From assembly GCA_965221695.1 (NCBI GenBank), contig OZ244905.1, forward strand, positions 762,355 through 826,354: a DNA stretch of 64,000 bases, in the 5' to 3' direction. This stretch comes from Gammaproteobacteria bacterium. Lineage in GTDB: Bacteria > Pseudomonadota > Gammaproteobacteria > Eutrophobiales > Eutrophobiaceae. Both the position numbers and the translations under genes were made by a program. The notes under the pieces were generated by a model that made no database searches, was not told the DNA's origin, and saw nothing but the letters and a program-made list of their open reading frames with translations. The stretch's first letter is position 1; the number at the start of each line of letters is the position of its first letter. Below are positions 49,617 through 57,525 of the stretch, in pieces.

Positions 49617-51164
49617 ATGGCAAAGCCAGAAAAAAACAAAGGCGCTCATCTCGGGTTCGAGTCGAAGCTCTGGGCGACCGCGGACAAGTTGCGCGGCAAC
49701 ATGGAACCGTCCGACTACAAGCATGTCGCTCTCGGCCTGATCTTCCTCAAGTACATCTCGGACGCTTTCGAAGCAAAGCGAAGCGAGTTGCTAAAGAACA
49801 AGAATGCCGATGCCGAGGATCCGCTGGAATATCTCGCCTATAACCTCTTCTGGGTTCCTAAGGCAGCTCGCTGGTCGCGTCTGCAGGCCAGAGCCAAGCA
49901 GACGACGATTGGCAAAGACATCGACGATGCCATGCTAGCCATTGAAGCCAGCAATACCTCGCTCAAGGGCGTCCTGCCGAAAGATTACGCCCGACCGGCG
50001 CTCAATAAGGTCATGCTCGGCGAACTGATCGACCTGGTGAGCGGCATCGGCATGGCCGAAGAGGCGGACCGCTCCCGCGACATACTCGGGCGGGTGTACG
50101 AGTACTTCCTCGGCGGCTTTGCCGGGGCGGAAGGCAAGCGAGGCGGCGAGTTCTACACGCCCCGCTCCGTCGTCCGGCTACTGGTCGAAATGCTGGAGCC
50201 TTACAAGGGCCGCGTCTATGACCCCTGCTGCGGTTCCGGCGGCATGTTCGTGCAGTCAGAGCGTTTCGTCGAGGAACACGGCGGACGCGTAGGCGACATT
50301 GCTATCTACGGCCAGGAAAGCAACTACACGACCTGGCGTCTCGCCAAGATGAACCTTGCGGTGCGCGGTATCGACGCCGATATCCGCTGGAACAATGAAG
50401 GCAGCTTCCACAAAGACGAACTACCGGACCTCAAGGCCGACTTCATCCTGGCCAATCCACCCTTCAATGTCTCCGATTGGGGTGGCGACCGGCTACGCGA
50501 CGATGTCCGCTGGACGTTCGGCGTGCCACCGGTAGGCAACGCCAACTACGCCTGGCTCCAGCACATCCACCATCACCTTGCACCCAATGGATCAGCAGGG
50601 GTGGTACTCGCTAACGGTTCCATGTCCACCACAACGTCAGGTGAAGGAGACATCCGTCGCGCCATGGTCGAAGCCGATGCGGTGGATTGTATGATCGCAC
50701 TGCCGGGACAGCTCTTCTATTCGACACAGATCCCCGCTTGCCTCTGGTTCCTCGCTCGCAACAAGAATCCTGGCCAAGGTCAACGTGACCGGCGCGGCGA
50801 GGTGCTGTTCATCGACGCCCGCAAGGTCGGGCACATGGTCGACCGGACCCGTAAGGAGTTTTCTGACGAGGATATCGCACGGATCGCAGATTGCTACCAT
50901 ACCTGGCGCGGAGAACCCGACATGGCCCTATATGAAGATGAACCGGGCTTTTGCAAGTCCGCCACGCTGGAGGAGATTACGAAACACGGCCACGTTCTGA
51001 CACCCGGCCGCTATGTTGGTGCTGCGGCAATCAAAGATGATGACGTGCCATTTGAGGAGCGGTTCGCGGAGTTAAAGGAGACGCTGGCTGAGCAATTCAC
51101 CGAGTCCCGAAACCTGACCAAGATCATTCAGAATAAACTGGACGAAATCGGTACTCATGAATAG
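49617..51164 (+). CDS. hsdM: Type I restriction-modification system DNA methyltransferase subunit HsdM
   Basis: N-terminal [38 protein letters not shown] motif. N6-adenine MTase catalytic motif NPPFN ([12 protein letters not shown]). Preferred start is the ATG at 49617. Confidence 0.9.
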
Positions 51165-52449
51165 ATGGTCCATACTTTCATTGCGGGACGTCGGTGTCGA
51201 GTTGATTGACTGTCTACACAAGACACCCGCAGCACAAACGGAGGGATATCCATACGTAGGTATTCCTCAGATGAGGGACGGATGGATAGACTTTGGCAGC
51301 GCTCGAAAGATATCACATGACGACTTTGTCGAATGGACGACGAAGGCAATGCCTCAACAACACGACGTAATTCTCTCGCGGCGTACAAATCCTGGGGTAA
51401 CGGCCATTGACAGGACAGGCACTGAATTCGCGCTCGGTCAGAATCTCGTCTTACTTCGCGCAGATGGCATCCAAATCGATCCACCATTTTTGAAATGGCT
51501 CGTACGCTCGCCTGCTTGGTGGCAGCAGGTTGAAAAATTCATGAACGTTGGCGCTGTATTCAACAGCTTGAGGTGTGCTGATGTGCCTAACTTCGAGCTC
51601 CCAGTTCCGCCCTTCGAGACTCAACGGCGAATGGGAAACTTGCTTGATGTCCTTGAAAGCGCAATTGACATGAATCGTCGAATGAACGAAACACTGGAGG
51701 CGATGGCTCGGGCAATCTTCAAGGACTGGTTCGTCGATTTCGGCCCCACGCGTGCCAAGGCTGAAGGGCGCGCTCCCTACCTCGCCCCCGACATCTGGGA
51801 TCTGTTCCCTGACGCACTGGACGACGAGGGCAAGCCGGTTGGATGGGATTGGTCAAAAATCGCGTCGATGGCGAGCACTAAGCTAGGAGGTACTCCTTCG
51901 CGCAAGAAACCCGAATTGTGGGGTGGCAGTGTGCCTTGGATAAACTCGGGAAAGGTCAATCAGCTCCGTGTGATATCCCCCAGCGAATTCATCACAACTG
52001 AAGGATTAGAGAATTCCTCGGCTAAGCTACTGCCCAAGAGAACGACTCTAATTGCCATTACTGGCGCCACTTTAGGCCAAGTTAGTCTTAGCGAGTGTGA
52101 GACTAGCACCAATCAATCTGTGGTTGGCATAGTCGGCAATGATCGAATGCTGAATGAGTTTCTATATTGTTGGATAAGAGAAAATATTGGCGAGCTTCTT
52201 GCGTTACAGACAGGTGCCGCTCAACAACACATCAACAAGGGCAATGTTGACCAATTAGCGGTTCTGTCTCCAGCCGCGGAAGTATTGAACTCTTGGGTTA
52301 GTCTGTCACGGCCGCTCTTTGACTTGATTGCGTTGAATTGCTTCGAAAGTGAAACCCTATCCGTAACTCGCGACCTTCTCCTTCCAAAACTCATGTCCGG
52401 CGAAATCCGTCTTCGGGATGCCGAAAGGGCTGTTGAGGCCGTGGCATGA
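51157..52449 (+). CDS. hsdS: Type I restriction-modification specificity subunit HsdS
   Basis: 430 aa. Two target-recognition-domain halves with conserved spacer helices. Overlaps hsdM by 8 nt. Confidence 0.8.
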
Positions 52450-57200: not shown

Positions 57201-57525
57201 AGACATCCGCGCTGCACACCAGCGCGGCGAGGAGGAAGGACTCAGCTCGGAGGAAATCGCCTTCTACGATGCTCTTGCCCAGAACAAGAGCGCAATTGAA
57301 GTGATGGGCAATGACCACCTACGAGTGATCGCCCAGGAATTGCTGAACAGCCTGAAAAGCAACGTTTCCGTGGACTGGCAGCACCGCGTGTCGGCGCGAG
57401 CCCGAATGCAGGTTCTGGTCAAGCATATCCTCCGCAAGCACGGTTATCCACCCGATCTGCAGGACGCCGCCATACAGACCGTTCTGCAACAGGCCGAAGT
57501 CCTCTCAGCACGGTGGGCCGTATGA
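54250..57525 (+). CDS. hsdR: Type I restriction enzyme R subunit HsdR
   Basis: About 1092 aa from the ATG at 54250 ([22 protein letters not shown] typical HsdR N-terminus). SF2 helicase motifs including DEAH ([11 protein letters not shown]). C-terminal helical region. Confidence 0.9.

Follow-up and report, generated by a model that had tools for sequence, protein, structure and literature searches.

We analysed a stretch of 64,000 nt, hereafter the window, from a Gammaproteobacteria bacterium (Eutrophobiaceae; assembly GCA_965221695.1, contig OZ244905.1, 762,355-826,354). It contains a Type I restriction-modification (R-M) operon in which two further genes stand between hsdS and hsdR, one for a helix-turn-helix (HTH) protein fused to a zinc peptidase and one for a PIN-like protein of the DUF4411 family. 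The explanation that we consider probable is an intact Type I operon that carries an autonomous abortive-infection and addiction cassette of the VapBC52 type, which would form a second defence layer and be expressed from the operon promoter. An earlier note on this DNA had likened the two genes to a toxin-antitoxin (TA) or sensor module. This likeness is strongly supported, since both proteins are homologous to those of the crystallised VapB52/VapC52 complex.

The putative antitoxin-toxin pair and its place in the operon

The link to VapBC52 came from a sequence search of PDB chains. The first protein of the pair, the putative antitoxin (52446-53594, + strand, 382 aa; Pfam Peptidase_M78, 1.8e-14), matches chain A of entry 9vzy, which is VapB52, with E=1e-18 over residues 7-347 of 382. 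The putative toxin (53594, or 53591, to 54112, + strand; 172 aa, or 173 aa from the GTG at 53591) matches Pfam DUF4411 over its full length (2.9e-46), and chain D of 9vzy and chain A of 9vzz, both VapC52, with E=3e-12. These entries are VapB52/VapC52 of Mycobacterium tuberculosis (Rv2515c/Rv2514c), described by Singh et al. in Nucleic Acids Research, June 2026 (PMC13273310). In that work VapC52 is a DUF4411 PIN tRNase, and VapB52 is an unusually large antitoxin, with an HTH N-domain, a middle zinc peptidase of the IrrE/CapP kind and a C-terminal helical domain. One VapB52 binds a VapC52 dimer. Single-stranded DNA (ssDNA) switches on the peptidase, the N-domain is self-cleaved at a conserved FR motif, and the toxin is released. 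Overexpressed VapC52 shields M. smegmatis against phage D29 (PMC13273310).

The window antitoxin is built of an N-terminal XRE-type HTH, a DFR junction motif, an IrrE/ImmA (M78) zinc peptidase and a C-terminal helical domain. The HTH is picked up by PADLOC and NCBIfam, and further family matches are found with PADLOC RmrA (1.8e-14), PADLOC CapP (7.7e-10) and phrog_2439 (1.4e-46). Residue conservation was scored over 74 members of its clade. The predicted self-cleavage motif, D75-F76-R77, aligns with the DFR of VapB52; its D and R are invariant, and the middle position is F in 41 and Y in 33 of the sequences. The zinc site, H220-E-L-A-H224 (HExxH) with E246, is invariant in all 74. The start of the C-terminal domain is also aligned, with GGDFY in the window and GGNWY in VapB52. 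Between two antitoxin clades, the N-terminal ~75 residues are far more conserved than the remainder, as judged by inspection of a BLASTP alignment with 47% identity overall.

In the toxin, the acidic residues D9, E51, D112, E130 and D144 are invariant or nearly so among 24 homologues, and are identical in the alignment with VapC52. Its AlphaFold2 model, with a mean confidence score (pLDDT) of 87, has the VapC/FitB PIN fold. No PADLOC model matches the DUF4411 protein at E<=0.01. The PADLOC models therefore miss this toxin, and loci of such kind get annotated as plain Type I systems.

Five open reading frames (ORFs) lie head to tail on the + strand, in the order hsdM, hsdS, antitoxin gene, DUF4411 gene and hsdR. 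The methyltransferase subunit gene hsdM (49617-51164, + strand, 515 aa) matches Pfam N6_Mtase (2.9e-107), Pfam HsdM_N (7.7e-26) and PADLOC MTase_I (4e-213), and its product keeps the N6-adenine methyltransferase motifs NPPF, at residue 280, and DPCCGSGG intact. Its start, the ATG at 49617, agrees with the N-termini of homologues and lies in frame within a longer GTG ORF. The specificity subunit gene hsdS (51157-52449, + strand, 430 aa) has two target-recognition domains, seen as two stretches of Pfam Methylase_S, and matches PADLOC Specificity_I over its full length (8.6e-83). The restriction and translocase subunit gene hsdR (54250-57525, + strand, 1091 aa) matches Pfam HSDR_N, SWI2_SNF2, T1R_D3-like and T1RH-like_C (5e-125) as well as TIGR00348 (2.8e-181). 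HsdR has a nuclease motif (PD..ELK at 143), GSGKS at 323 and DEAH at 427 of a superfamily 2 motor, all intact, and a C-terminal assembly domain. The start of hsdR at 54250 is backed by a public gene call and by homologue N-termini, and a start at the GTG at 54208, which would give the longest hsdR ORF, probably lies too far upstream. By these domains and motifs, hsdM-hsdS-hsdR looks like an intact Type I R-M operon. The same operon with its pair was found on an independent ENA metagenome contig.

The junctions are tight. As read directly from the sequence, hsdM and hsdS overlap by 8 nt, ATGAATAG, and hsdS and the antitoxin gene by 4 nt, ATGA. The antitoxin/toxin junction reads GTGATG, which gives an overlap of 4 nt (GTGA) if the toxin starts at GTG 53591, and of 1 nt (TGATG) if it starts at ATG 53594, the start picked by public gene callers. 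A spacer of 137 nt separates the DUF4411 stop at 54112 from the hsdR ATG at 54250. The gene identities and + strand positions given by the earlier note agree with the ORFs and the Pfam/PADLOC domains. Its overlaps of 8, 4 and 4 nt and its gap below 140 bp are also correct, with the third overlap depending on the start codon. A search for internal terminators returned six terminator-like sites against 8.5 expected by chance, and a scan for sigma-70-like promoters inside the operon returned no more sites than shuffled sequence; none of either kind is convincing. A single transcript for the five genes is plausible.

Recurrence at Type I loci and the relic before hsdR

A genome scan gave 426 relatives of the pair (clade 1), and we analysed the best 80 of the 426, with 61-83% identity. 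The antitoxin gene stands directly upstream of DUF4411 in 80/80 loci, and the 1-nt overlap geometry is the same in 68/80. Nearly all are from uncultured metagenome-assembled genomes (MAGs), many of them marine, and the record titles span ten or more phyla or classes.

By their titles, these records include MAGs of Alpha- and Gammaproteobacteria, Acidobacteriota, Gemmatimonadota, Rhodothermales, Chloroflexota, Myxococcota, Verrucomicrobiota, Planctomycetota, Spirochaetia and Binatia. Several of the taxa named are presumably marine or sponge-associated, with Ca. Multivorans, Palauibacter and the SB06xx bins taken by us to be sponge symbionts. The wide taxonomic range suggests extensive horizontal spread of the pair within one habitat.

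Neighbouring hsd genes were identified by phmmer and jackhmmer searches seeded with Hsd proteins. These replaced a clustering of six-frame ORFs, which was swamped by shadow ORFs in the high-GC DNA. In clade 1, full-length hsd genes on the same strand are present at 39 loci, and hsd fragments at a further 20 (E down to 1e-75). We called a locus well-flanked with at least 3 kb on both sides of the pair, and linked with hsd sequence within 6 kb. By these definitions, 48/66 well-flanked loci are Type I-linked. A second clade, defined by the DUF4411 type of the relic described below and sampled from Joint Genome Institute metagenomes, has 19/28 well-flanked loci linked, mostly as M-S-[TA]-R. The co-occurrence at hsd loci that the earlier note had proposed to check is seen in two clades, at ~70%.

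The pair occurs in several arrangements. With the HsdR family of the window the order is M-S-[TA]-relic-R. A second arrangement is M-S-[TA]-R with direct overlap, where HsdM and HsdR are ~25% identical to those of the window, and a third is R-M-S-[TA] with an EcoEI-type HsdR. These common arrangements put the pair just after hsdS; [TA]-M-S-R, [TA]-R-M-S and M-[TA]-S are also seen. Identity of the TA proteins stays at 62-84% across loci where Hsd identity is 76-87%, 56-64% or only ~25%, which implies that the cassette moved between unrelated Type I operons.

In the antitoxin tree, loci without hsd genes or with hsd fragments are scattered inside the hsd-linked subclades. This indicates that restriction genes decayed repeatedly while the TA pair next to them persisted. 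Homologues at a greater distance (28-44% identity), found on plasmids and a lambdoid prophage, are stand-alone in 7/7 records inspected. These copies have their own upstream intergenic region and lie among other TA and mobility genes, with one in a prophage moron position. Phage protein families match both proteins of the pair.

At some loci, hsd fragments lie just upstream of intact pairs, at ~8680-8841 in L049, L059, L061 and L063 and at ~8157-8850 in L038, L052, L053 and L062. All match one region (~250-486) of the stop-to-stop ORF that holds the EcoEI-type hsdR of L048, with E down to 1.6e-75, and they look like remnants of deleted R-M-S operons. In four other loci (L075, L058, L032 and L030) the antitoxin ORF is in two pieces and the toxin ORF is apparently intact. 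These splits could be frameshifts of long-read MAG assembly, or true decay with a tolerated toxin.

In the spacer before hsdR lies what remains of the 3' end of another DUF4411 gene, a relic at 54113-54250 (+ strand). This ORF of 45 codons exactly fills the spacer, with its ATG straight after the TAG of the toxin and its TGA overlapping the ATG of hsdR (TGATG). Its peptide matches Pfam DUF4411 with E=6e-5 at profile positions 131-159 of 159, which are the last 29. It is 68% identical to the C-terminus of an intact second DUF4411 protein in another locus, L057, whose gene ends in the same TGATG junction. There, an intact antitoxin-DUF4411 pair of the second type abuts hsdR, and its antitoxin is 47% identical to that of the window. 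Relics of varying completeness with the TGATG junction precede hsdR in ~10 related loci, and a conserved DNA stretch precedes hsdR. With a profile built from close homologues only, the relic peptide does not reach significance by itself (E=0.55 in a search of 1490 window ORFs). The claim of a relic rests on the Pfam match and on the intact homologous C-terminus in L057.

The simplest reading of these sequences is that an older DUF4411 cassette, coupled to hsdR, was replaced at the same site by the present one. Its last ~45 codons would have been kept because they carry the start context of hsdR. Differences at codon positions 1, 2 and 3 of the relic number 241, 262 and 341, so that the third position is only mildly in excess, and DNA of such high GC content often has open frames; we do not claim a functional micro-protein. 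L057 is itself composite. Its region 9400-15729 holds a degraded pair of the window type, a 5' fragment of hsdR (10522-10851), the intact second-type pair and a full-length hsdR. This junction suggests cassette exchange by recombination through homology in the 5' part of hsdR.

Surroundings of the operon

The operon lies in an accessory stretch of ~12.5 kb (~45286-57831), flanked by ordinary metabolic, transport and regulatory genes. The stretch also holds a HicB-like antitoxin gene (45286-45735, - strand, 3.7e-8), a low-GC gene of 749 aa and unknown function, two small decayed-looking ORFs, and a lone DUF433 gene (57574-57831, - strand, 9e-22). No obvious HicA partner was found among ORFs of at least 60 aa, although HicA is small and could be missed. 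DUF433 proteins are usually the antitoxin partners of PIN toxins, and no PIN gene adjoins this one. The HicB-like and DUF433 genes look like orphan TA components that flank the island. The two small ORFs, of 128 aa (48450-48836, + strand) and 73 aa (48840-49061, + strand), lie between the 749-aa gene and hsdM. The second matches phrog_5176 (5e-8) at positions 1-63 of 132 only and looks truncated, and the ORF pair (48450-49269) is possibly a decayed two-gene module. There are no tRNA genes in the window, and the ORFs examined between ~39 and 59 kb showed no integrase.

The leader of hsdM (49300-49616) is AT-rich. It fails to align with a ~150-nt leader that, by inspection of the alignment, is apparently common to the closest related operons (L002, L003, L005, L008, L032 and L057). 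The promoter region of hsdM has apparently been exchanged, perhaps along with the low-GC insertion that lies upstream. Two direct repeats of 11 nt, GGCAGGATAGA at 49446 and GGTAGGATAGA at 49485, lie 39 nt apart in the leader, and no inverted repeats were found upstream of hsdM. A by-eye reading gives a possible third, degenerate repeat copy, GGCAGGATGAT, near 49510.

Explanations and known systems

In the explanation that we prefer, all genes would be read from the hsdM promoter and be translationally chained, as the geometry of the junctions suggests. By homology with VapBC52, the antitoxin would hold the DUF4411 PIN dimer inactive through its N-terminal HTH and C-terminal helices, until an infection or damage cue (ssDNA in the case of VapB52) turns on its IrrE-type zinc peptidase. 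Self-cleavage of the antitoxin would follow at the D-F/Y-R junction that comes after its HTH, and the released toxin would cleave tRNAs and stop growth and phage production. The cassette would be an independent defence layer and an addiction module that stabilises the locus, and not a physical partner of the restriction enzyme. It would be mobile between Type I loci, and in the lineage of the window it would have displaced an older related cassette. The explanation also draws on a pair that is inseparable (80/80), autonomous on plasmids and in a prophage (7/7), and intact beside hsd fragments. Precedents at the hsdS/hsdR junction also back independent cargo, as it holds DarTG2 in enteropathogenic Escherichia coli (PMC12255303) and TgvAB in VPI-2 of Vibrio cholerae (PMC11411939).

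Several points weigh against this explanation. Toxicity, neutralisation, trigger and RNA targets are assigned by analogy with a homologue of ~25-30% identity. The Cys that gates the peptidase in VapB52 and CapP (C229 in VapB52), nine residues past the second His, is replaced by Ser in the window clade, at Ser233 of the window antitoxin and in 73/74 sequences. The activation switch, and possibly the trigger, may differ from VapB52 because of this; C249 of the window antitoxin, aligned to C248 of VapB52, is a different, conserved Cys. A linkage of ~70%, seen in two DUF4411 clades and with three or more Type I families that are unrelated, far exceeds what the clustering of defence islands alone would give, and leaves room for a functional tie. 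In addition, a classical autoregulated TA operon has its own promoter, and none is visible for the cassette here.

The earlier note had also raised a link from restriction to abortive infection or to an anti-anti-restriction response. A functional tie between cassette and Type I enzyme, with the cassette as a guard similar to PrrC or as abortive infection triggered by restriction, is in our judgement unlikely, though not negligible. The antitoxin would sense ssDNA or DNA ends that arise from HsdR translocation and cutting followed by RecBCD-type processing, or else phage anti-restriction inhibition, and the tRNase would fire only with restriction engaged or defeated. The linkage of 48/66 and 19/28 loci, to at least three Type I families (~25% identity) and in more than one position, speaks for it, as do the tight translational chaining, which leaves the pair no space for a promoter, the long residence at one site with cassette turnover, and the ssDNA trigger of the characterised homologue VapB52. 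By analogy only, PrrC is found almost exclusively in Type I loci, and protection by TgvAB is 10-100-fold better within its Type I cluster (PMC11411939). However, the pair is intact where hsd genes are fragmentary or absent, with such loci interspersed in the antitoxin tree, and distant homologues, including the only characterised one, function without a Type I system (PMC13273310). Partners from unrelated Type I families (~25% identity) speak against a specific protein-protein interface, and the hsdS/hsdR junction is known to take up unrelated defence cargo in general (DarTG2, TgvAB, PrrC). Obligatory coupling of the pair to restriction is unsupported, because the distant homologues stand alone and the pair stays intact beside decayed hsd genes. 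A two-tier system, where the DNA-sensing peptidase of the antitoxin responds to whether the restriction enzyme next to it is active or has failed, and so links restriction with tRNA-cleaving abortive infection, seems distinctly unlikely. Its signal could be ssDNA or DNA ends from HsdR cutting and host exonucleases, or anti-restriction blockage. It may work as PrrC/EcoprrI does but with a different sensor, the Ser-for-Cys change may be part of the rewiring, and the relic ORF may have been retained to couple translation of HsdR to that of the cassette.

We find it quite improbable that the pair is a purely selfish addiction module without a role in phage defence, which hitch-hikes at an insertion-tolerant site and whose loss kills the cell. 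Stand-alone copies amid plasmid stabilisation and TA clusters would fit, and so would a pair that outlives the adjoining hsd genes. On the other hand, the characterised homologue gives phage resistance in M. smegmatis, related systems with an HTH-peptidase antitoxin (RosmerTA) are validated defences, Type I loci are preferred far more than chance would give, and one copy is at a prophage moron position. Highly improbable is a HTH-peptidase that serves mainly as a transcriptional controller of the restriction operon, similar to C proteins, delaying or tuning hsdR after transfer until relieved by self-cleavage, with DUF4411 as an accessory nuclease and not a growth-arresting toxin. The N-terminal domain of VapB52 is structurally nearest to the R-M controller C.Csp231I, but it contacts the toxin, and not DNA, in the solved complex (PMC13273310), and similarity among XRE-type HTHs is generic. 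The conservation of the N-terminal ~75 residues between the antitoxin clades, and a gene just upstream of hsdR with a conserved DNA stretch before hsdR, would also suit a controller. Against it, the search upstream of hsdM found no operator with inverted repeats, the window and its closest relatives have unrelated hsdM leaders despite the same cassette, and the pair is present without R-M genes on plasmids and prophages.

Nested defence cargo between hsdS and hsdR is already established and the TA family is already characterised. With the pair explained by a characterised homologue, the locus adds no new mechanism. The gain is comparative. One TA family prefers Type I operons, and does so in two cassette clades, in many phyla and with three or more Type I families that are unrelated, and a molecular fossil records the replacement of one cassette by another at the same junction. 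We regard the recurrent Type I embedding together with the relic as a modest new observation. If the linkage is functional, it would place the pair next to PrrC as the second case of a Type I enzyme with a suicide nuclease wired to it, and offer a natural setting for asking what triggers IrrE-type sensor peptidases. If it reflects mere site tolerance and addiction, it is a well-documented case of defence operons accreting cargo.

The gene pair had been predicted in general terms. Makarova et al. 2009 (PMC2701414) predicted TA systems of a COG2856-Xre fusion with a PIN protein, the "three-component" HTH-DUF955 kind. In Matelska et al. 2017 (PMC5499597) the prediction is a gene for an HTH-DUF955 fusion with DUF4411.1 downstream of it, and some PIN-like toxins are reported to be transcriptionally coupled to Type I R-M subunits. 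According to the two studies, such arrangements are usually not conserved (PMC2701414, PMC5499597). The window pair is exactly the predicted one, whereas these studies have no DUF4411 statistics at hsd loci, hsdS/hsdR position or cassette turnover. We found no paper that describes recurrent embedding of the HTH-peptidase/DUF4411 pair in Type I operons, or the relic, beyond the general remark in Matelska 2017.

The concept of "guilt by embedding" for nested defence cargo comes from Payne et al. (2024 preprint). PrrC/EcoprrI also has its cargo at hsdS/hsdR, and the window locus shares with PrrC, DarTG2 and TgvAB the insertion site and the operon logic of a second defence system within a Type I operon. 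The cargo family differs, and physical regulation by the Type I partner is known, among these, for PrrC alone. PrrC-like proteins join an ABC-ATPase to an anticodon nuclease that the Type I enzyme keeps latent. We rejected this kind for the window, as there is no ATPase domain and the PIN toxin comes with an antitoxin of its own; the likeness is positional only.

RosmerTA (RmrT/RmrA), validated both as a TA system and as a phage defence (Millman et al. 2022; Ernits et al. 2023, PMC10440598), likewise pairs an antitoxin of HTH and ImmA/M78 peptidase with a swappable toxin. Unlike the window toxin, the characterised RmrT toxins are not PIN nucleases, and one is a membrane depolariser. By the criteria of PADLOC v2 the window pair is not RosmerTA, with weak and partial RmrA matches (1.8e-14 to 8e-5) and no RmrT match for DUF4411.

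The closest resemblance is to VapBC52. Both have a large antitoxin gene followed by the DUF4411 toxin gene with overlapping stop and start, a three-part antitoxin with HExxH+E and the DFR junction motif, and a PIN toxin with the same acidic residues. The window proteins are distant (~25-30% identity), their clade has Ser in place of the switch residue C229, and their antitoxin is without the 23-residue disordered N-terminal extension of VapB52. Their genes also lie within a Type I R-M operon, to which they are chained, whereas the mycobacterial pair presumably stands alone, not embedded in one. From sequence, the window pair appears to be a distant but clear member of the VapBC52 type that lacks one regulatory feature, the Cys switch.

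An IrrE-type zinc peptidase, a DNA-damage or ssDNA signal and an HTH target are also common to CapP/CapH of CBASS (phage defence that signals through cyclic oligonucleotides), ImmA/ImmR of ICEBs1 and IrrE/DdrO of Deinococcus. There, two separate proteins serve as protease and HTH substrate, and the result is derepression of transcription. In the window antitoxin, as in VapB52, protease and HTH are fused, and by homology the output would be release of the toxin.

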